Source of the DNA: Acidimicrobiia bacterium
GTDB taxonomy: Bacteria > Actinomycetota > Acidimicrobiia > Spongiisociales > ZC4RG35
DNA length: 64,000 nt
Direction: 5' to 3'
NCBI GenBank assembly: GCA_965216725.1
Contig: CBDCGI010000005.1
Coordinates: 10,343-74,342, forward strand
The stretch's first letter is position 1. Every line of letters starts with the position of its first letter. The position numbers and the translations under genes were made by a program. The notes beneath the pieces are model-generated. The model was not told the origin of the DNA and searched no databases. It saw only the letters and a list, made by a program, of their open reading frames with translations. Positions 1-42,589 of this stretch are shown in pieces.

Positions 1-857
1 TGGCTCAAACCCATACCGAGAACTCGACCACCGCGACCGAATCATGGAGAGGCTGGCGCCGCAGTGTCTTCTACGCGATCGTCACGGTGCTACTCGTGGG
101 AGTGGGGATCGTCTTCTGGAAAGTCAACCTGTTCCCGATACTGGCCTGGCTACCCGAGGAATTTCTCAACGACTTCTATGCATCACAGCTCGAGTTCGAT
201 CACATAACTCACGGAGACTTCGGGCCTCACGTCATTCACTATCTCGCGATCTCAGCCACGCACTGGTCGCTGATGATCGGGTTGGCGTTGCAGTACAGGA
301 ACCCGCTCTCAAAGGTTGCGCCGATGTGGCAAGTCACGGGTGGAATGACAGTGGTCACACTGACATACCCGTTCGCTGACGTCTCCCGAATCCCACCACC
401 TGTGTTTGCCATCATCGCCCTGGCCGTCGTCGCCGGATTGCTCCATCCCGCGCGCATTTTCAAGACGGCACCGAAGTTTCGTGACAGGCCGATGTGGGGC
501 TTAGCGCTGGCGGCAGCGGTACCGGTTGTGTTCATGATCGTCGACCAACTCGGGCTGCAGGCATCAGGCGTTGAGGCTGACCCCCACTGGCAAGGTCTGC
601 ACTACAACTTCATGGGTGAATTCGGACTCATCTTCCTGCTGGTACTGACACTTGGTGCGAGCTCCTTGCCGGGCTGGCGTTACTCGGTGTGGACCGGAAC
701 CTTCCTCGCTGCGCTGATGGGCATGGGCTTCGTCGTCTACCCGGATATGTCATCCAGCCAGGGACTCCTCTGGGGGCTGGCTCTAGTCGGTTTCGCTGGT
801 CTCTGGATCACCCTGGGTGAAAGGCGATATCGCACTGCGGTCGGAGTTCGAGGGTGA
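1..857 (+). CDS. Polytopic membrane protein X1, 5'-partial: the reading frame is open to the window start. Paralogous to the product of 3472..4212.
   Basis: Long ORF with multiple hydrophobic helices and no stop back to position 1 in frame. A C-terminal W-R/S-Y/F-S-V-W-T-G-T block is shared with the 3472..4212 product. Confidence 0.5.
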   Translation, partial: AQTHTENSTTATESWRGWRRSVFYAIVTVLLVGVGIVFWKVNLFPILAWLPEEFLNDFYASQLEFDHITHGDFGPHVIHYLAISATHWSLMIGLALQYRNPLSKVAPMWQVTGGMTVVTLTYPFADVSRIPPPVFAIIALAVVAGLLHPARIFKTAPKFRDRPMWGLALAAAVPVVFMIVDQLGLQASGVEADPHWQGLHYNFMGEFGLIFLLVLTLGASSLPGWRYSVWTGTFLAALMGMGFVVYPDMSSSQGLLWGLALVGFAGLWITLGERRYRTAVGVRG

Positions 858-859
858 CA

Positions 860-1468
860 ATGGGAACTGGCCGCGCCGTTGCCGTCGGTGCGGGCCTCGG
901 CTTGGCTTGGGCGGTCTCATTTCGGGCCTGGATGACCCATCTCCAGTTCGACTTCTTCAAGTCTTGGCCCGTCTACACCTGGAAAGGAACCTTCCTTTCG
1001 GTTGTGCTTCCTGCTGTGTTGGTGGGAGCACTACTCGGCTACGACTGGCAGCGACGCCGGCAAGACCAACCACGAATTCCGCTTGCCGTCTGGTCGCCGA
1101 TGCTGATGGCCATCATTCCAGCACTCCTCGCTGAAGACTTCATCGGCACCCTCCTCGAAAACGGGATGGGGAGTGGAGCCATCGCCATCGTCTTGATCGG
1201 GATGGGTGGCGGCTTCGCAATCTCGGGGCGGGGACTGGCTTGGCTCCGACTAGCGGTTGGATTGATCTTCGTCAGCGTCCTCACGGTCATGGCTGTCGGC
1301 TTCTACTTCTGGGATCGTTCCATTTCAGCATCCGGAGGATTCGGGGCTGTGTACCTGGTGGTCCTGCTCGTGTCGCTATCGATCGCTTTCTCAGTTCCGA
1401 TGACGGAACTGCAGGCGATCGGCCACCCCTACCGCGACGCCATAGAGGTGCCCTCAAGGATCTCGTGA
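860..1468 (+). CDS. Membrane protein Y1, paralog of 2879..3475.
   Basis: ATG at 860 (GTG at 854 overlaps the upstream stop as GTGA). RAWMTHLQFDFFKSWPVYTWKGTFLSVVLPAVLVGALLGY aligns with RSWMTHLAIQFNDWPRFTWEGTFLAVLLPAAVVGALIGW in 2879..3475. Multi-TM. Confidence 0.55.
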   Translation: MGTGRAVAVGAGLGLAWAVSFRAWMTHLQFDFFKSWPVYTWKGTFLSVVLPAVLVGALLGYDWQRRRQDQPRIPLAVWSPMLMAIIPALLAEDFIGTLLENGMGSGAIAIVLIGMGGGFAISGRGLAWLRLAVGLIFVSVLTVMAVGFYFWDRSISASGGFGAVYLVVLLVSLSIAFSVPMTELQAIGHPYRDAIEVPSRIS

Positions 1469-2145
1469 TCGTTCCACTTCTCAGCGACTTCGGGGCGAAG
1501 GAGAAGCTGACTCAGCGATCGGTAGAGCCAGAGCTTGTAGTCGCCTACTTCCCAACCGCGTTCCTCGACCAACAGCCGATAAGTCTCGATGCTGTTAATT
1601 GCGAAGGAGACGTCTGCGGCGGCTGCAGGTGTGAGGTCTTCCTTGAGGTCACCAGTAGCCGCCACCGCTTCCATCTGAGAGTGGATCGATTTCCATCTGG
1701 AGGACATCAGGAGTTCCCAGGCCTCTGCGATGTCTGGCTCGGTCGCCATGGCCGCGACCACCGTGGGGTAGATCGGGGCAAATCGCCGGTAGATATCGGC
1801 GCCGTTTTCGCACGCCAGGGCCAGGGTCCTTCGCCCGTCGGATGCGTTGAGGGCTTCGTCCACCCAATCTCGACTCGCTGTGTCGGTGGGCTCATCGGTT
1901 CTGCCGGCCATGAACATGAAGAGCTCTCCGAGGAGACGAGCCTTCGTATTGAAGACGTAGTACACCGTCTGTACAGCAACTCCAGCCTCGTCGGCGATGG
2001 CTTCGACGGTGGTCCCCGCATACCCGTGCTCGGAGAAGAGACGGCGGGCCGCCTGCAGGATCGACCTTCTCGTGGCGGCGGCTTTCTCTTTTCTCGTTGT
2101 CGTCTCTTTGGCGATGGTGTCTCGTCTCCCGATCCGGACTATCAG
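1429..2145 (-). CDS. TetR-family transcriptional regulator. The start codon is unresolved: no ATG, GTG or TTG lies in frame upstream of the HTH.
   Basis: Manual translation upstream of the track ORF gives RKEKAAATRRSILQAARRLFSEHGYAGTTVEAIADEAGVAVQTVYYVFNTKARLL, a classic TetR N-terminal HTH. An in-frame stop at 2176-2178 bounds the 5' end. Only CTG (2143-2145), ATA or ATC are available as starts. Confidence 0.7.
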   Translation of the reverse strand: MIVRIGRRDTIAKETTTRKEKAAATRRSILQAARRLFSEHGYAGTTVEAIADEAGVAVQTVYYVFNTKARLLGELFMFMAGRTDEPTDTASRDWVDEALNASDGRRTLALACENGADIYRRFAPIYPTVVAAMATEPDIAEAWELLMSSRWKSIHSQMEAVAATGDLKEDLTPAAAADVSFAINSIETYRLLVEERGWEVGDYKLWLYRSLSQLLLRPEVAEKWNDHEILEGTSMASR

Positions 2146-2780
2146 GACATCTTGGTCGGTGTCAGCGGTGCTGCCTCATCAGACATGTTCGACACTTCCA
2201 TCAATGCGGCAACCGACATCGCGACCAGGAACCCCTGTGCTCCCACTAGAGGCCATGCCGCCCACCCACTTGCGATGAACACGGGCGTCACCACCAGCAC
2301 TGGCCAGAGCCCTGCAGCCAGTATTGAGTATCGGCGCCAACCGATCCATTTCCGTTCTCGGACTGCCTTGACTCCGGCAACGATCAGTCCCGCGCCAGAT
2401 ACGAGGGCTGCTGCTCCAAGCACTCCGGTCACGACGACACCTGCGGTCGAATCAACAGGAGACTCGCGAAACAGAATGTACGCCAGCTCAGCAGGGACCA
2501 TCACTCCAAACGCGATTGCAGAGGTCGCCAAGGCACCGACTGCCGTCCCATTGGTTGCGTCGGAGTGACGAACACCCCAAGTTCCCGCTACCGCACCTGC
2601 GTGTACTACAGCCAGGACACAAGCCGTCCACCACACCTCTTCTGCCGCAGCCGGATAGCTGAGCTGGGTATCGGCCACCCGTGGTCCAACGACCATGTCT
2701 TTCAGGCCAAGGATCAGGCCGAGAGCTCCTCCAATCACCCCGAACCAACTCAGACGTTTCACCAACATTCGACGCAGCAT
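2142..2780 (-). CDS. Membrane protein, co-oriented upstream of the TetR gene.
   Basis: Hydrophobic multi-TM ORF. An internal ATG at 2780 is preceded by AAAGGAGGA with 6-nt spacing, which is preferred over the GTG at 2810. The stop at 2142-2144 abuts the TetR region. Confidence 0.55.
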   Translation of the reverse strand: MLRRMLVKRLSWFGVIGGALGLILGLKDMVVGPRVADTQLSYPAAAEEVWWTACVLAVVHAGAVAGTWGVRHSDATNGTAVGALATSAIAFGVMVPAELAYILFRESPVDSTAGVVVTGVLGAAALVSGAGLIVAGVKAVRERKWIGWRRYSILAAGLWPVLVVTPVFIASGWAAWPLVGAQGFLVAMSVAALMEVSNMSDEAAPLTPTKMS

Positions 2781-2878
2781 GATCGATCCTCCTTTGCTAG
2801 AGTGAGCCACTAGTGACGAACTATAGTACCGACTCTGGAAGCCGTCCGAAGAATGTCAAGACGGTTCACAGCGGGACG

Positions 2879-3475
2879 ATGCCCAGGGTTCGCGCCGTTG
2901 CCATCGGCGCCGCTGTTGGTCTAGCTTGGGCACTCGCTCTGCGCTCCTGGATGACTCACCTGGCCATTCAGTTCAACGATTGGCCGAGATTCACCTGGGA
3001 AGGCACGTTTTTGGCCGTGCTCCTGCCCGCGGCTGTTGTGGGAGCGTTGATCGGCTGGAACAGTGCGACCGGGGTCGGGAATAGCCGTGGTCGGCGGTGG
3101 GTGATGTGGTCTCCCGTGCTCCTGGCTGTGGGACCGGCACTCCTCGCGGACGATTTCGTAGGAACGCTCATGGACACAGGTGAAGGCAGTGGGGCCCTGG
3201 GTGTCGTCATCATCGGCATCTGCGGTGGGTTTGCGATCTCGGACCGCGGTCGCCCCTGGCTGCGCTGGACCAACGGACTCATCGCTGTGGGGGTCACCGG
3301 CGTCATGACCTACATCTTCTACTTCGCCGAACCGCCGTTCACGAGCAGCGACGCCTTTGGAGCCCTATTGCTAGTGATGCTGATGCTTGGGCTCGCCTTG
3401 GGTTGCTCGGTTCCGAGGCGGGAGTGGGGGCCAACCGGCAAACCCGTTGAGAGCGTCCACCTGGAGACACGATGA
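2879..3475 (+). CDS. Membrane protein Y2, paralog of 860..1468.
   Basis: See 860..1468. The ATG at 2879 aligns with the paralog's N-terminus (MPRVRAVAIGAAVGLAWAL vs MGTGRAVAVGAGLGLAWAV). The track ORF begins at the GTG at 2813. Confidence 0.55.
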   Translation: MPRVRAVAIGAAVGLAWALALRSWMTHLAIQFNDWPRFTWEGTFLAVLLPAAVVGALIGWNSATGVGNSRGRRWVMWSPVLLAVGPALLADDFVGTLMDTGEGSGALGVVIIGICGGFAISDRGRPWLRWTNGLIAVGVTGVMTYIFYFAEPPFTSSDAFGALLLVMLMLGLALGCSVPRREWGPTGKPVESVHLETR

Positions 3476-4212
3476 GCTTCGGCCTCCTTCGAAGTGCGTT
3501 GTCCCAACCCACAAGGGGCGGTGCAATCTCCGGGGCGGCGGCAGTGACGACGCTGGCCATCGGAGGCTCTTTGGCAACCTTCTTTCTGTCGTCCGCTCTG
3601 TGGCTCTCTCGTATGGGCTTTGCGACTCCGGGCGGTTCTGGCGGTCGCCCTTGGACCGTGTGGTTCGTGACTGTAAGCCTTCTACTTGTTCTCCTTCCGC
3701 CCTTCCCGGGAGGGTGGGTGTGGGGCTGGGGGCTTGCACGCATGTTTGACCGTCCGACGCGATCTGCGGCCAAAACCGGGGCGTTGGCATTCGGGGGAAT
3801 GGTATGGCTGACTGCCGCCCCCACCGATCTCACACAACTGTGGCTCGATGGCCTCCCCGCATGGATGCCCTGGGACGTCCATGGCTACTTCACGGTCGTC
3901 TTCATGGTCGAAGTAGCGGTTGTAGGCGGCGTCGCCGCCTGGCGTCTCGCCAAGCGACTCGGCTCCGGACGCTGGAGTTTCTCGGTTGGCGTCTGGACCG
4001 GAACGGCGGCCGCCCTCGGGTTTCTCATCGGCTCGGTCGTGGCTGCCGCTGTCGGCTTCCGGATCTACCCGTGGGTGAGACTGTCGATGGTCTGGGCGTT
4101 TCTTACCGCACTCCCGTTTTCAACCGTGGCTGCGGGTGCCGTGCTCGGTGCTTTGCTGCACCAGTCTCTACGCATGGATACAGATGAACGCGAATTCGTG
4201 GCCCGGCTCTGA
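3472..4212 (+). CDS. Polytopic membrane protein X2, paralog of 1..857. Its start overlaps the previous stop (ATGA).
   Basis: Multi-TM. Shares the C-terminal GRWSFSVGVWTGTAAALGFLIGSVV block with PGWRYSVWTGTFLAALMGMGFVVYP of the first gene. Confidence 0.5.
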   Translation: MSFGLLRSALSQPTRGGAISGAAAVTTLAIGGSLATFFLSSALWLSRMGFATPGGSGGRPWTVWFVTVSLLLVLLPPFPGGWVWGWGLARMFDRPTRSAAKTGALAFGGMVWLTAAPTDLTQLWLDGLPAWMPWDVHGYFTVVFMVEVAVVGGVAAWRLAKRLGSGRWSFSVGVWTGTAAALGFLIGSVVAAAVGFRIYPWVRLSMVWAFLTALPFSTVAAGAVLGALLHQSLRMDTDEREFVARL

Positions 4213-4343
4213 GACATCGGACGTGGGCTCTATCAATCTCTCCCAGACGTCGACCTTGCGGCCATCCGAACTCGACCGAGCCACCAATCTTGAGTCCAGC
4301 TCGGGAGTCCTCGACTTTGGTCGTTTGAAGTCAGAGAACCAGC

Positions 4344-4553
4344 CTTGTGGGGCGCCTGTGGACCGCCAGATCTCGCCGATCACCAATATCGGTGGTGAAG
4401 AGCGATCGCGAATCGCCCTGACCAGGGGATTCGGTGGAGCTGATCGGATTTGAACCGACGACCCCCTCGTTGCGAAAGATGCGGTCAAACCTCTCTGACC
4501 AGGGGAAACGCGCCGGTTGTGGTCCTTTGTGGGGCGGCTGTGGGCCGAGCGAC
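4344..4553 (-). repeat. Composite element A: R1 motif (4344-4375), CTGACCAGGG box, a tRNA-Ala 3'-half-like pseudo-tRNA (about 4432..4510, minus strand) whose 5' half is replaced by a GGTCA..TGACC hairpin, then R2 motif (4515-4553).
   Basis: The segment TTCGCAACGAGGGGGTCGTCGGTTCAAATCCGATCAGCTCCACC matches the tRNA-Ala at 16083..16159 from the anticodon loop to the acceptor 3' strand, with compensatory T-stem changes. It is flanked by cttgtggggcgcctgtgga... and gttgtgg..tttgtggggcggctgtgggccgagcgac. Confidence 0.6.
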
Positions 4554-4646
4554 ATGAGAGGTCGCGAGACGTGGTGAGATGAGGCAGCCAGTTGCTTCCG
4601 ATTTTGTCGTCGTGGGCGCAGGTCGCTCTGCCATGTCCGACCGCCG

Positions 4647-6177: not shown

Positions 6178-9100
6178 TCACTTGTCCAAAGACGCCCGGA
6201 GCGTCAAACACCGGTTCGCCTCATCCTCATGGCCAATTCGCTCGAAGGTCTCCGCGGCCTCGGTCAAACACAGGTAGGCCTCCTCTTTGAGCCCTGCCGC
6301 CCGCTGAGCTTCTCCGAGATCGCGCTTAGTGCAGGCGATGTTGAGGCCGAACTCGCCAAAGGCGGCGACCACCGGCAGGGACTCGTTCAGTAGCGACACC
6401 GCAGACTCGGCGTCACCGCCAGCCAGAGCCGCTTGGGCTCGCTCGGTTCCGACCAACGCCAGGCCGATGCGGTCGGCTCGTTGCCGACACAACTCTGTGG
6501 CCTCCTCGAGATAGCTCGCGGCCTCATCCAATCGTCCGCGATCCGCCAGAACACGGACAATGCTGATGAGGCTGGCAACGACCCCTCGCAAGTGGCCGAT
6601 TCGTCTCCTCGAGTTGAGACTTCGCATCAGGTGATGCTCAGCCGCATCGAGGTCTCCGCTCTCGAAATCGAGTTGGCCCCGCCACGACAACGCAAGAGCC
6701 TGACCACTTTCGTCTCCGACTTCCTCGTAATGTCGAAGGGCTGCGTCCAGCAACGAGGCGACCTGATCTAACCGCCCAGACAGCCTCTCGATGTTCGCCC
6801 TAGCCACAGCCACGGAGGCGCTGGCATGACGGCCGATTCCGTCTTCCAGAGAAACGAATGTCTCGCACCACATGTACAAGGTTTCGCCTCTACGTCTGGT
6901 CGGAGCCCAAGCACCCAGCGTGTAGATGTCGAAGACACCAGGAGTCTCGAGGGTCGAGAGGAGCGTCTCGGCTCGATCGAGAAATGCTCCAGCTTCGTCA
7001 TAGTCGAGTCGGAATGTGGCGAGCATGGCCAGGCAGAGATATGCGGAGACCTCGAGCGCATCATCATCAACGCCACGCGCCAGGTCACGGGCTTGTTTGA
7101 ACAAGGCACCCGCGATCTCGAATTCGTCGCGATCGAATGGTCCTATCGCTGCGAGTAGCAGTGCCCGGCCAACCCGCGAATCGTCTGCCAGGGCCGTCGC
7201 CTCTGCGGCGCTCAGAGCGGCGAAACGCTCCATCTCCTCGAATCCCTTCCATCGAAAGGCAACCGCGGAGGCTGCCAACAGCAGGTCTGCCCGATCAGCC
7301 GACGGTCCAGATGCGTGCTCGAGTACACGCTCGATCAACTCGAGCCCTTCACCTAGATGGGCCAGCCAGAGCCAATAGGGCCACAGTCGCGACGCGAGAC
7401 GAACGGCAAGGCTGGGACTCGTGGCCAAGAGATGGTCGACTGCAGGGCCAAGTTCATCGCGTACCGCCGAGAGACGCGCGACCAGTTCAGCGCGGTCCGA
7501 CGCATCGGTCATCCCGCCGGATTCTGACAATCGGAGCAACCACTCGGCGTGGGAGTCCCTCGTTTCTCGGAGAGCACCCTGGTGTCGCAAGGAGTCGAGG
7601 CCGTACTCTCTCATCGTCTCGAGAAGGCGATAGCGGAACTGTCCGTCGGCCGTGATAGCGACCATCGACTTCTCGGCCAGACGACTGAGAAGAGAGGCAA
7701 TCTCACCCTGGATGTCCGACTGCGCTATCGACTGGGCTGCCTCCAGATCAAATGGACCGTTGAACACCGACAGCCTCAGAAACAAAGACTGCTCCGGTTC
7801 TGAAAGCAGATCGAAACTCCAATCGACGGTGGCCTTGAGGGTCCGCTGGCGACTCAAGGCAGTTCGCGCCCCGTCTACCAAAAGCCCCAAACGGTCATCG
7901 AGATTCTTCGCAACGTCGGCGACTGACAAGGTAGGAACGCGTGCCGCAGCCAGTTCGAGCGCCAAAGGCATACCATCGAGCCGGAAACACACCTGAGCAA
8001 CCTCGGTCATGTTTTCTTCGCTGACTTCGAAGTCTGGTTGCACGGCCTGGACCCGCTCACGAAACAACGTGATCGCGTCGAACCGATACATCTCGTCTGC
8101 GGGCGGCAGGTCAGTCGGGTCGGGTACGCGCAACGACGAGACTCTGCGAACTATCTCTCCCGGAACTCGGATCGGCTCTCGACTCGTGGCGAGCACAGTC
8201 AATCCGGGACAGCTCTCCAGGAGGTTTGCCATGGCTACGGCCACGCCATCAGCAACGTGTTCGCAATTGTCCAATATCAGAAGCACTTCGTCCTCGGCGA
8301 TTCGGTCGGCGACAGCCTCGACGGCGGTTCTATCAGGCCCGCGGCGAACGTCCAGAGCCCTCATCAGCTCCGCGGACACCTCATCTGCCCGTGCCACCGG
8401 GGCAAGTTCGACGAGGAACACACCACCACTGAAGTCGTCGAGATGCCTTCGGCCCGCTTCAACGGCCAGCCGAGTCTTTCCGCATCCTCCGGGACCGACC
8501 AGTGTCACCGTCCGACCACTAGACAGCGCCTCTCCGAGTTCGCGCAGCTCCTTCTCTCGCCCGACGAAACTCGACAAGGGAGCACCGATATTCGTCGCAG
8601 GTCGCGACCTGGAAGACGCTCCCGGCTCGACCGGTAACAAGCGGCCCATCGCGATTTCGTCACGAAGACTCTGCGACGTCTTGTCGGGTGCAACGCCCAA
8701 TTCGTCTTGCAGGACCCGCTCCAGCACGTCGTACTGACGCGCAGCAGCGCTCCTTTCGCCCGCCTTGGCGTAGAGCCGCATCAGCTCTCGATGAGCTGAC
8801 TCGTTGGTCGGATCCTCCACCAGGATCTGGCGCAAGAGGTCCGCCGCCGCGTTCGCCTCACCAGAGTCTTCGAGCGCGTTGGCCAGCCCACGCATGAGGT
8901 CCAGATTCAAGCGGTGAAGGATCTCCCGTCGCCCAATTGCCCAATCTGAATATCGATCATCCGGCAGGAGTTCTCCTGGGTAGAGATTCAGAGCGGTCTC
9001 GTAGTCCAATCTTGTCTGACTAACCAGCGCGTGACGCGCCGCAGACTCGAACTCCTCGACGTCCACCGAGAGCCCTCCGCCAGGGCACAAGACCAACGTC

Positions 9101-9393
9101 TCCGCCTCCAAGGACAGAAGGGCACGCCCGTCGCCACCCGCCGAATCGATCGCCCGTCGGGCGGCATGCAGAACCTGATACAGATTGTTGGCTGCTGCAT
9201 CCATATCCCTATCGGGCCACAGAAGATCAAGAACTTCGTCGCGCTGCTTTCGCCAACCACGCGAAAGGGCAAGCAGTTTGATTAGATCCCTGGCCTTGCT
9301 CAGACGCCACACCGATGGCTCGACGGATCGGTCGCCAACCCAGACTTGGAAGTCGCCGAGAAGCACAACACGGAGTTGGCTGTTGTGACCCAT
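6178..9393 (-). CDS. AfsR/SARP-like multidomain regulator: OmpR-type winged helix, BTAD, NB-ARC-like P-loop NTPase and TPR repeats.
   Basis: N-terminal LRVVLLGDFQVWVGDRSVEP...RDEVLDLLWPD (OmpR/SARP DNA-binding domain). BTAD segment LYPGELLPDDRYSDWAIGRREIL. Walker A TLVGPGGCGKTRLAVE. Long C-terminal TPR-like helical repeats. Confidence 0.8.
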   Translation of the reverse strand: MGHNSQLRVVLLGDFQVWVGDRSVEPSVWRLSKARDLIKLLALSRGWRKQRDEVLDLLWPDRDMDAAANNLYQVLHAARRAIDSAGGDGRALLSLEAETLVLCPGGGLSVDVEEFESAARHALVSQTRLDYETALNLYPGELLPDDRYSDWAIGRREILHRLNLDLMRGLANALEDSGEANAAADLLRQILVEDPTNESAHRELMRLYAKAGERSAAARQYDVLERVLQDELGVAPDKTSQSLRDEIAMGRLLPVEPGASSRSRPATNIGAPLSSFVGREKELRELGEALSSGRTVTLVGPGGCGKTRLAVEAGRRHLDDFSGGVFLVELAPVARADEVSAELMRALDVRRGPDRTAVEAVADRIAEDEVLLILDNCEHVADGVAVAMANLLESCPGLTVLATSREPIRVPGEIVRRVSSLRVPDPTDLPPADEMYRFDAITLFRERVQAVQPDFEVSEENMTEVAQVCFRLDGMPLALELAAARVPTLSVADVAKNLDDRLGLLVDGARTALSRQRTLKATVDWSFDLLSEPEQSLFLRLSVFNGPFDLEAAQSIAQSDIQGEIASLLSRLAEKSMVAITADGQFRYRLLETMREYGLDSLRHQGALRETRDSHAEWLLRLSESGGMTDASDRAELVARLSAVRDELGPAVDHLLATSPSLAVRLASRLWPYWLWLAHLGEGLELIERVLEHASGPSADRADLLLAASAVAFRWKGFEEMERFAALSAAEATALADDSRVGRALLLAAIGPFDRDEFEIAGALFKQARDLARGVDDDALEVSAYLCLAMLATFRLDYDEAGAFLDRAETLLSTLETPGVFDIYTLGAWAPTRRRGETLYMWCETFVSLEDGIGRHASASVAVARANIERLSGRLDQVASLLDAALRHYEEVGDESGQALALSWRGQLDFESGDLDAAEHHLMRSLNSRRRIGHLRGVVASLISIVRVLADRGRLDEAASYLEEATELCRQRADRIGLALVGTERAQAALAGGDAESAVSLLNESLPVVAAFGEFGLNIACTKRDLGEAQRAAGLKEEAYLCLTEAAETFERIGHEDEANRCLTLRASLDK

Positions 9394-9478
9394 TTGGAGG
9401 ACCCTATTTTGTCGGCTGCCACCGAGCCGAGGGATTGCGAGAGCACCTCGCAGAAAATGAGGGGGTCACGGCACGAAT

Positions 9479-9688
9479 CTTGTGGGCCCTCTGTGGAGCG
9501 CGAGAATCAACCAGCGCCTCAATCGGCTCGTCGGACGCGGTCAGAAATCGCCCTGACCAGAGTGTTTAGTGGAGCTGACGGGATTTGAACCCGTGACCCC
9601 CTCGTTGCGAAAGATGCGGTCATAGCCCTCTGACCAGGGGGAACGATCTGCAATTGCGGCGTTGTGGGGCGGCTGTGGGCCGAGCGAC
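9479..9688 (-). repeat. Composite element B: R1 motif (9479-9506), CTGACCAG box, a tRNA-Ala 3'-half-like pseudo-tRNA (about 9568..9645, minus strand) whose 5' half is replaced by a hairpin, then R2 motif (9661-9688).
   Basis: The segment TTCGCAACGAGGGGGTCACGGGTTCAAATCCCGTCAGCTCCAC is identical to the 3' half of the tRNA at 16083..16159 except for the terminal CTA (tRNA has CCA). The upstream ~130 bp also aligns with the region downstream of the real tRNA (15955-16082). Confidence 0.65.
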
Positions 9689-9875
9689 GTGAGATCACGT
9701 GAGACGCCGGGCATGCAACAAGATCGAAGAATGGCACACCCAACCGCAACTCTCCTATCGCCAGCGGCACACGCCACCTCGCCGGTCGTGACACGGGAAA
9801 GTCCACTCAGCATGGTGTTGGGGCGAGCACTGGCCATAGAATCTCTGACTCGTCTGGAGGGATACCACCGTCACT

Positions 9876-15752: not shown

Positions 15753-16082
15753 CGATCCGAGAAATCTCAAACGCCGGGTCACGGTCCGAAACCCGGTTCT
15801 AGGAGCCGCCGCGAGTTCTGAGGGACCAAGCCGAGTTCTCGGAGAGTGATCGGCGTCGCTTGACCGGCAGTCCCGTGGCACGCCTGCCACTTCTGGGCAC
15901 CAAGAGCTACAGCCCTCGCTCGATCGACTTCGCTCAGGAACCAGCAACTCAGCCTGACCCCCTCGCAGCAAATGAGGGGGTCAGCGATCAGATCTTGTGG
16001 GGCGCCTGTGGAGCGCGAGACTCGACCAACGCCCAATTCGGCCGACTGGGAGCCAGTCAGAAACGGTCCTGACCAGGGCAAA

Positions 16083-16159
16083 TGGTGGAGCTGACGGGAT
16101 TTGAACCCGTGACCCCCTCGTTGCGAACGAAGTGCTCTGCCAGGCTGAGCTACAGCCCC
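16083..16159 (-). tRNA. tRNA-Ala, anticodon CGC.
   Basis: The reverse complement reads GGGGCTGTAGCTCAGCCTGGCAGAGCACTTCGTTCGCAACGAGGGGGTCACGGGTTCAAATCCCGTCAGCTCCACCA: a cloverleaf with a G3:U70 pair, anticodon-loop CGC and an encoded CCA. Confidence 0.85.
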
Positions 16160-41439: not shown

Positions 41440-42522
41440 TCAGTTGATCACCAGGGCAGGGTTAGTGCGAATCCTCGGGCGTTTCTCCTCAACGGCCGAT
41501 GCCAGGGCTTCGAAGGACGCCTCCGCCTCCGAGCCCGGCGCTACAACCGAGACCGGGTGACCGGAGTCGGCACCCCGTCCCATCGCCGGGACCAAGGGTA
41601 TCTGGGCCATGAGGTCCACCCCGAGCTCTTCAGCAAGGGTTGCGCCTCCCCCGGAGCCAAACAGCTCATATCGCTTGCCGTCATCCCCGGTGAACCAGGA
41701 CATGTTCTCGACGACACCAACCACCTCTTGATCGACCTCGGCGGCCATCAGAGCCGCACGTCGGGCGACTCGCTGTGCGGTTGGTTGCGGCGTGGTGACC
41801 AACACCACCTGAGCACGGGGAAGGAACTGCGACATCGAAATCGCGATGTCTCCGGTTCCGGGAGGCATGTCCACGATCAGGAAATCCGGGTTGTCCCAAA
41901 ACACGTCCTTCAGGAACTGTTCAATGGCTCGATGCAACATGGGTCCCCGCCAGATGACGGCTTTGTCCTCCCCGACGAAGTAATCCATGGACATGACCTT
42001 CACCCCGAAGGCAACGGGAGGGATGATCGACTCGCCCAGCATCGTGGGAGGGTGATCAACTCCCATCATCGCCGGTACCGAGAAACCCCAGATGTCACCG
42101 TCCACGATTCCGACGGTGTGCCCTGAGCGACGCATGGCGACGGCCAAGTTGCAGCTGACCGACGACTTCCCGACGCCTCCTTTCCCCGAAGACACGGCAA
42201 CCACACGGGTCGTAGAGCCTGGCTGGCCGATACCTGGCCCTGATTTGGCAACGAGCTCGGCCATCCACCTCCCTGCTGACTCCTCATCCAGGACATCGGC
42301 AGTGATGTCGGCGCCTCGGCCGAACGGCTCCAAGGCATCCCGCAAGAGAGACTCGAGGTCTTCGGGCGCAGCAGGCGAGGGAAGAAGGAGATCCACCTTC
42401 ACCTTGCCAGTCACGGTCTTCGAGACGTCTTTGACCATTCCCAGCTCCCCAAGCGTCCTACCGACGAACATCGGCGATTCGATGGACGCGACAGCTTGTC
42501 GTGCTTGATCTGTGACGGACAT
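41440..42522 (-). CDS. mrp: Mrp/ApbC/NBP35-family iron-sulfur cluster carrier ATPase.
   Basis: N-terminal DUF59/MIP18-like segment, then VSSGKGGVGKSSVSCNLA deviant Walker A, and a C-terminal CxxC (CNLxxxC). Confidence 0.85.
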   Translation of the reverse strand: MSVTDQARQAVASIESPMFVGRTLGELGMVKDVSKTVTGKVKVDLLLPSPAAPEDLESLLRDALEPFGRGADITADVLDEESAGRWMAELVAKSGPGIGQPGSTTRVVAVSSGKGGVGKSSVSCNLAVAMRRSGHTVGIVDGDIWGFSVPAMMGVDHPPTMLGESIIPPVAFGVKVMSMDYFVGEDKAVIWRGPMLHRAIEQFLKDVFWDNPDFLIVDMPPGTGDIAISMSQFLPRAQVVLVTTPQPTAQRVARRAALMAAEVDQEVVGVVENMSWFTGDDGKRYELFGSGGGATLAEELGVDLMAQIPLVPAMGRGADSGHPVSVVAPGSEAEASFEALASAVEEKRPRIRTNPALVIN

Positions 42523-42546: not shown

Positions 42547-42562
42547 AGAAGACCTCGAAAAC
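42547..42562. promoter_or_regulatory. Perfect 16-bp palindrome GAAAACTATAGTTTTC in the divergent mrp / regulator intergenic region. Candidate operator.
   Basis: Self-complementary sequence read directly. Lies 28 nt upstream of the regulator's ATG. Confidence 0.45.
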
Positions 42563-42589
42563 TATAGTTTTCAGCAGGCAATATCAGGC

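Follow-up and report, generated by a model that had tools for sequence, protein, structure and literature searches.

A duplicated family of small membrane proteins beside a TetR-type regulator in an Acidimicrobiia bacterium

Does a TetR-family regulator gene that lies between two pairs of membrane protein genes control a single duplicated complex, or do the pairs have separate origins and separate regulators? This question is raised by the first 4.2 kb of a 64,000-nucleotide stretch of DNA from an Acidimicrobiia bacterium (contig CBDCGI010000005.1 of assembly GCA_965216725.1; the whole stretch is called the window here). A first-pass annotation made from the sequence alone had described a duplicated two-gene module, X1-Y1 and Y2-X2, with swapped gene order and a TetR gene and a fifth membrane protein gene, M5, in between. 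All six open reading frames were found in their places, and apart from the TetR protein all the products are highly hydrophobic and span the membrane several times. The picture that emerges is a different one: Y alone is duplicated, X1 and X2 belong to unrelated families, and the X1-Y1 pair is linked in relatives to another TetR group. The features concerned are as follows.

X1, 1..857, plus strand: open reading frame for a 285-residue membrane protein with eight predicted transmembrane (TM) helices, undescribed family
Y1, 860..1468, plus strand: 202-residue protein of the Y family with six predicted TM helices, coupled to X1; alternative start GTG at 854
TetR-B, 1429..2146 (start approximate), minus strand: TetR-family regulator, second gene of the M5 operon
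M5, 2142..2780, minus strand: 212-residue polytopic membrane protein that could be assigned to no family; its gene leads the M5-TetR-B operon
Divergent control region, 2781..2878, no strand: 98 bp, candidate TetR-B operator and promoter region
Y2, 2879..3475, plus strand: 198-residue Y-family protein; 220 residues from a GTG start at 2813 in databases
X2, 3472..4212, plus strand: 246-residue membrane protein of an undescribed family, ATGA overlap with Y2

Duplication of Y and coding character of the genes

Y1 and Y2 are identical in 96 of 201 aligned residues (48%, E 5e-54), a relationship far stronger than the roughly 40 residues on which it had originally been proposed. The proposed paralogy of X1 and X2 does not hold up in the same way. 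BLASTP aligned only the block noticed earlier, in which 10 of 33 columns hold gaps (E 0.47), and a comparison by hhalign of profiles built from 44 X1 homologues (alignment A3) and 18 X2 homologues (alignment A4) returned a probability of 0.14% (E 0.41) and left the W-x-G-T block, which had been taken as the shared feature, unaligned. This block also occurs in Y, where it starts a helix (T39-W40-x-G42-T43-F44), and is thus a short recurrent motif and no evidence of homology between X1 and X2. As X1 and X2 are not detectably related, neither a duplicated X-Y module nor a swapped gene order remains; judged from these alignments, Y is the one duplicated family, which follows X1 in one operon and in the other precedes X2, a protein unrelated to X1.

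All six genes are real and under purifying selection, with ratios of non-synonymous to synonymous differences per site (pN/pS) of 0.14-0.34. These ratios were obtained by Nei-Gojobori counts against L013, a 3.4-kb contig of a related organism that is 92.5% identical to window positions 1021-4443 and keeps the whole arrangement Y1 / TetR-B / M5 / Y2 / X2. They amount to 0.34 for the part of Y1 compared, 0.24 for M5, 0.29 for Y2, 0.22 for X2, 0.15 for TetR-B and 0.16 for the part of TetR-B that encodes its helix-turn-helix (HTH), the last of which argues that TetR-B is translated.

At its left end the window starts at the second base of the X1 ATG, as follows from a 285-residue database protein (P0187) that is 100% identical to X1; the A of this codon lies one base to the left of the window and the rest of X1 is complete. 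The X1 stop codon (855-857) is followed two bases on by the Y1 ATG at 860, the alternative GTG at 854 overlaps the stop as GTGA, and Y2 and X2 share an ATGA at 3472-3475, so that the junctions are as described when translational coupling was proposed for both pairs. The strong ribosome-binding site noted earlier for the membrane protein on the opposite strand is likewise present as AAAGGAGGA, 5 nt before the M5 ATG at 2780, and this start is supported by a GTG at the same position in L013. For Y2, ATG 2879 is preferred over the GTG at 2813, since the resulting 22-codon extension is not conserved among homologues (alignment A1) and positions 2813-2878 differ from L013 by three non-synonymous changes and one synonymous change. 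Y1 and TetR-B are convergent and their 3' ends overlap by 40 bp at 1429-1468; no terminator-like hairpin was found between them.

Membrane protein families and their folds

None of X1, X2, Y and M5 matched a Pfam or NCBIfam model above the cut-off, and the same was true when 61 Y, 44 X1 and 18 X2 family members were scanned singly. Sequence profiles of PDB entries gave no match to any of the four, and the AlphaFold2 (AF2) models of Y and X1 had no fold match among solved structures, including those of transporters. An origin from a defence system or a phage was considered and discarded, as no PADLOC or PHROGs match was found. The earlier impression that these membrane proteins carry no recognisable transporter signature is therefore borne out by every one of these searches.

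For the Y family, a word-indexed search found 11 clusters only among 5.8 billion proteins, and 347 representatives with E values up to 1e-3 came out of an exhaustive search of 1.84 billion with a profile. We define Y as a new family by two profiles, A1 and A2. Y1 and Y2 match the Y profile with E values of 1e-64 and 1e-69, respectively, over about 190 positions, and both contain its W17, R22, W40-x-G-T-F motif and G-x-G-x-GA loop. The AF2 model of Y2 has a predicted local distance difference test (pLDDT) score of 91.7, and its helices, read together with the positive-inside rule, suggest that Y crosses the membrane six times and that both of its ends face inward. Helix three (residues 69-100) is broken by prolines and carries the most highly conserved motif, WSP..P..DF.GTL..G.G.GA. 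Across the wide family W17, R22, W40, T43 and R129 are the only conserved polar residues, which argues against an enzyme; conserved catalytic residues are lacking. No internal repeat was detected when the N-terminal and C-terminal halves of Y were compared (hhalign probability below 1%), nor were Pfam domains found in the additional parts of longer Y-family proteins. At least nine complete Y-Y tandem fusions with linkers of 5-29 residues are present among the listed representatives. Because such fusions occur elsewhere, Y most likely acts as a dimer, and it may constitute a 6+6 permease-like or scaffold unit. The Y-Y fusions also gave rise to the idea that X might be a diverged Y, which was dropped: the X1 and X2 profiles reached probabilities of just 4.6% and 1.0% against the Y profile, a scan with the Y hidden Markov model matched a mere 17-residue motif in X1, and neither X1 nor M5 had a BLASTP match in the non-Y halves of the fusion proteins.

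X1 has homologues in at least 50 clusters, all annotated as 'hypothetical protein' and stemming from metagenome-assembled genomes (MAGs) of Acidimicrobiia and Actinomycetota. Its AF2 model (pLDDT 90.2) consists of eight long helices. The conserved residues include six histidines (H77, H80, H88, H149, H196, H201) alongside D67, D194, E207, R227, S229 and S253, a pattern of conservation that looks enzyme-like or cofactor-like, and in the predicted topology most of these residues would lie at or near the outer face. X1 is a probable metal- or haem-binding component. X1 itself gave a sub-threshold match to DUF2070 (20 bits against a cut-off of 30), a match shown by only three of the 44 X1 members, and a 286-residue protein encoded after a distant Y gene in locus L003 approached the threshold for DUF6220 (27.6 against 29.8 bits); in both cases the likeness stays below the gathering score. 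To our knowledge, neither domain family has a known function, and a literature search on DUF6220 retrieved nothing. X2 is represented by 26 homologue clusters, one of them from a Nitriliruptoraceae MAG, and a single orthologue of M5 was seen, namely in L013. Both X2 and M5 are further, unrelated cargo.

Two TetR groups, exchangeable partners and candidate operators

The identification of the central regulator as a TetR protein is correct: TetR-B matches PF00440 (the TetR_N HTH) with 60.8 bits against a cut-off of 24 at residues 27-73 of its 236-residue translation, and many NCBIfam TetR models match the same HTH. In this family the HTH is joined to an all-helical domain of about 130 residues that binds the ligand and mediates dimerisation; for TetR-B this C-terminal domain is supported by weak matches to TetR_C_11 and TetR_C_7 and by the efflux repressor TtgR, one of the best sequence relatives of solved structure, to whose chains 2xdn and 2uxh residues 16-216 align over the full length (E 1.5e-8). 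The start of the gene is unusual, as no ATG, GTG or TTG is present between the upstream in-frame stops (about 2176-2181) and position 1965, where the codon is already part of the HTH. From about 2175 on the frame has no stop, and two non-canonical codons could serve as the start, namely ATC at 2115, preceded by GGGAGA at a distance of 9 nt, and CTG at 2146, which overlaps the M5 stop as CCTGA. The whole start region (1965-2181) is unchanged in L013. A fusion of M5 and TetR-B by a -1 frameshift found no support, as the 12-codon overlap window contains no slippery heptamer.

In related loci the X1 genes are accompanied by a different regulator. A divergently transcribed gene, TetR-A, precedes the X1 orthologues in L006, L007-L009, L010-L012, L014, L015 and L017 at a distance of 72-160 bp. 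Among themselves the TetR-A proteins share 39-62% identity, as against only about 28% with TetR-B. In L014, which stems from a close relative and shares 86% DNA identity with window positions 45-1050 (X1 and the start of Y1), TetR-A lies 84 bp upstream of X1, so that a TetR-A gene is to be expected, and probably resides, just to the left of window base 1. The proposal of one unit under one TetR is not upheld by this association of X1-Y1 with a separate, divergent regulator. In L001 a TetR-A-type gene faces the order Y-X2-Z, and the gene of a TetR-A paralogue there immediately precedes one for an MFS pump, the usual efflux context.

The genes following X1 vary as well. Y follows X1 in the window, in L014 and in L002, where it is an 84%-identical Y1 orthologue. 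Its place is taken by Z in L006 and L007, by other small membrane genes in L010, and by a stub made up of 30 residues from the N-terminal end of Y (73% identical) in L015 (3662-3751), L016 (543-632) and L017 (1575-1664). These stubs indicate that the cassettes gain and lose partners. A Y2-type gene precedes X2 in L001 and L013. In L004 X2 is found without Y, in L003 no Y gene adjoins it, and Y stands alone in L005. The last locus was the only one returned by a scan of genome contigs for Y, and a scan of metagenomes returned the three stub loci only. Such variable partners make the cassettes modular and argue against an obligate X:Y complex, so that the earlier suggestion of a paralogous membrane complex is not supported. 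Z, which is absent from the window, is a third undescribed membrane family of 209-229 residues, 57-62% mutually identical and without a Pfam match.

Z, replacing Y after X1 or following X2 in TetR-A loci: L006 6924-7613; L007 6925-7581; L001 7119-7748; L015 1442-2221

Large genes for SARP/AfsR-like regulators with BTAD, AAA and TPR domains are located no more than a few kb from Y or X2 in the window (6178-9393, minus strand) and in L005 (3004-5778), as is a shorter BTAD/AAA_16 gene for 291 residues in L003 (2744-3619). Their recurrence in three otherwise different loci may be due to chance in the regulator-rich Actinomycetota.

A 15-bp palindrome, TAYAGT-N3-ACTRTA, is present in every TetR-A intergenic region with zero to two mismatches, usually twice. 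L015 and L017 had been left out when it was derived, and both match it with one mismatch, as well as which none of 2000 shuffled sequences did. Its left half-site, TATAGT, is located 16-17 nt downstream of a -35 element (TTTACA or TTGACA), a spacing that lets the half-site double as the -10 box of the X1 promoter. An operator overlapping the -10 box is a classic repressor layout. The palindrome is thus the predicted TetR-A operator, and TATAGTGACACTATA is a candidate TetR-A site. Within the window the palindrome was not found with up to two mismatches, as expected if TetR-A lies outside it.

TetR-A promoter-operator regions, upstream of X1 (of Y in L001): L014 4620-4703; L006 5911-6000; L007 5841-6000; L010 5914-6000; L015 2713-2784; L001 5724-5801

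The 98-bp divergent gap between M5 and Y2 contains the two short palindromes reported previously, CACTAGTG (2808-2815) and ACTATAGT (2820-2827). Their centres are 12 bp apart, they are built on ACTA/TAGT words like the TetR-A palindrome, and they include TATAGT, a -10-like hexamer that can be read on both strands. With 258 perfect 8-bp palindromes in the window (0.004 per bp), about 0.4 are expected per 98 bp and three are seen (at 2781, 2808 and 2820), which is weakly unusual. It is reasonable to regard CACTAGTG and ACTATAGT as candidate TetR-B sites or as -10 elements. Divergent TetR-family regulators less than 200 bp away have been shown experimentally to regulate their neighbours (Ahn et al. 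2012, PMC3511530), and since the gap of 98 bp falls below this distance, control of both Y2-X2 and M5-TetR-B by TetR-B, as first proposed, is plausible. ACTATAGT recurs at 42561 inside a perfect 16-bp palindrome, GAAAACTATAGTTTTC (42557-42572), located in or near a short gap between an open reading frame for 360 residues (41440-42522, minus strand) and an HTH regulator gene (ATG at about 42590; listed open reading frame from 42512). GAAAACTATAGTTTTC is probably the operator of this adjoining regulator gene. A link between the two ACTATAGT sites was dismissed as coincidence, as the copy at 42561 belongs to the different, 16-bp palindrome.

To the right of X2, a repeat of 90-250 nt occurs in three copies that are about 80% identical (4330-4571, 9440-9706 and 15956-16159). 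It contains the 3' approximately 50 nt of tRNA-Ala(CGC) and downstream flank; an intact tRNA is found only in the copy at 16083-16159 (minus strand). Neither ARAGORN nor Rfam called a tRNA or tmRNA in 4213-4646, which holds a partial tRNA-Ala copy instead. The L013 contig ends within the first copy. Such an arrangement resembles tandem accretion beside a tRNA gene, but the two segments between the repeats contain no integrase; they encode a BBE/FAD oxidase, the BTAD-AAA-TPR regulator, a DUF3800 protein, a histidine kinase and a LuxR-type response regulator.

Competing explanations and significance

The explanation that we favour, and to which we give about an even chance, is that two independent, ligand-released TetR switches each drive a short coupled operon of undescribed polytopic membrane proteins. 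Module 1 would comprise X1-Y1 with TetR-A in divergent orientation, its promoter (TTTACA ... TATAGT) being overlapped by one or two copies of the TAYAGT-N3-ACTRTA palindrome as in the relatives. Module 2 would comprise M5-TetR-B, read leftward, and Y2-X2, read rightward, from the region 2781-2878, whose two small palindromes would be the likely TetR-B sites. Without ligand, a TetR dimer on its palindromes would block both divergent promoters of the respective module; a small, probably lipophilic or membrane-active ligand would free the regulator, whereupon the membrane proteins would be produced in constant proportions. Support for the regulatory architecture is good. Repression and its ligand, a dimeric Y, metal binding by X1 and a protective or export role are what we infer beyond it.

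Several points weigh against this explanation. TetR-A lies outside the window, and that it is present at all is extrapolated from the related loci. A canonical start codon is missing from TetR-B, which leaves its expression unproven, and the TetR-B operator is only guessed: the best match to the TetR-A palindrome in 2781-2878 has three mismatches (p about 0.07), and although this region is 94% identical in L013 with both palindromes kept, conservation at such identity is uninformative. The clustering of the X1 histidines, finally, is deduced from helix positions and the positive-inside rule and not from model coordinates.

Four other explanations have to be set against two separate switches. 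Each X:Y pair could form an obligate heteromeric transporter, that is, a new small secondary transporter or efflux pump with the TetR protein as drug or ligand sensor, comparable to TetR/TetA or QacR/QacA. We regard this as unlikely, since no transporter family or fold is matched at meaningful scores, the partners are exchangeable (X1 is also found beside Z or other genes, and X2 and Y are found alone as well), and the fusions of Y itself are Y-Y and not X-Y. These same fusions, at least nine of them complete and with short linkers, speak for a related idea, in which Y1 and Y2 together make up a functional 12-TM unit, with X1, X2 and M5 as accessories or as unrelated proteins under common regulation. 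An even number of TM helices with both ends inside would permit such a parallel fusion, and two Y genes do lie within 2 kb of each other in the window and in L013/L014. A heterodimer of this kind is nevertheless improbable, as the two Y genes sit in separate operons, probably under different repressors, as a single Y is present in the other loci examined (L001, L002, L005), and as the Y1 and Y2 clades separated long ago (48% identity) and each goes with a partner of its own.

An ancestral X-Y module, duplicated with inversion of one copy and yielding two paralogous hetero-oligomeric complexes under the single intervening TetR, would account for the paralogy of Y1 and Y2, for the tight coupling within each pair, for the short block S-V-(x)-W-T-G-T common to X1 and X2, and for the finding that, in several independent contigs, the Y gene next to X1 is of the Y1 type and the one next to X2 of the Y2 type. 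We nevertheless consider it very unlikely. X1 and X2 lack homology at both the sequence and the profile level and differ in size (285 versus 246 residues), predicted TM profile and conserved residues, the W-x-G-T motif is found in Y too, the neighbour of X1 differs between loci, and X1-Y1 is tied to another TetR group in relatives. There is, lastly, the view that the genes are functionless, being either GC-rich chance frames or pseudogenising accessory DNA beside tRNA-associated repeats. The adjoining tRNA-Ala-derived repeats, the missing canonical start of TetR-B and the shrinkage of Y to a 30-residue stub in L015-L017 would fit this view; it is, however, essentially refuted by the pN/pS values of 0.14-0.34 for every gene, quite apart from tens to hundreds of homologues with conserved motifs and confident AF2 models, and we hold it to be scarcely tenable.

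Seen as two TetR switches, the locus resembles TetR/TetA(B), QacR/QacA, TtgR/TtgABC and ActR/ActA, which likewise combine a regulator with a TetR_N HTH and membrane protein targets. A short divergent gap (98 bp here, 72-160 bp for TetR-A) and two palindromes overlapping a -10-like element are further traits in common with units of the TetR/TetA type. Unlike in such units, the targets do not belong to MFS, RND, ABC, SMR, MATE or any other described family, TetR-B is itself not divergent but is the second gene behind M5, and it has no canonical start codon. For Y, the comparison is rather with half-size transporters that are dimeric or fused, such as the SMR (EmrE-Gdx) pairs and the 6+6 MFS proteins.

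Hypothetical membrane genes beside TetR genes are common in actinobacterial genomes, and the regulators and layout of this locus are ordinary; it is the membrane families Y, X1, X2, Z and M5 that are undescribed and rare. Two of them, X1 and Y, were modelled, and the models are confident and without a counterpart among solved folds. The practical value of these findings is limited, as the organisms are uncultured. Should the reading of two switches be correct, Y, X1, X2 and Z, together with M5, which is found only here and in one relative, would join the repertoire of TetR regulons, and TetR-A with TAYAGT-N3-ACTRTA would provide an operator-repressor pair ready for testing. The pairing of Y with unrelated partners points to modular shuffling of small membrane genes and not to duplication of a complex. 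A bolder interpretation, offered tentatively and with low confidence, is that Y represents a new superfamily of six-TM half-transporters, active as homo- or heterodimers or in the form of 6+6 fusions, and X1 a new eight-helix membrane enzyme with histidine-ligated metal or haem, and that both, together with the TetR-A switch, would form an unrecognised inducible system for membrane detoxification or export, so far found mainly in Acidimicrobiia- and Nitriliruptoria-like Actinomycetota.

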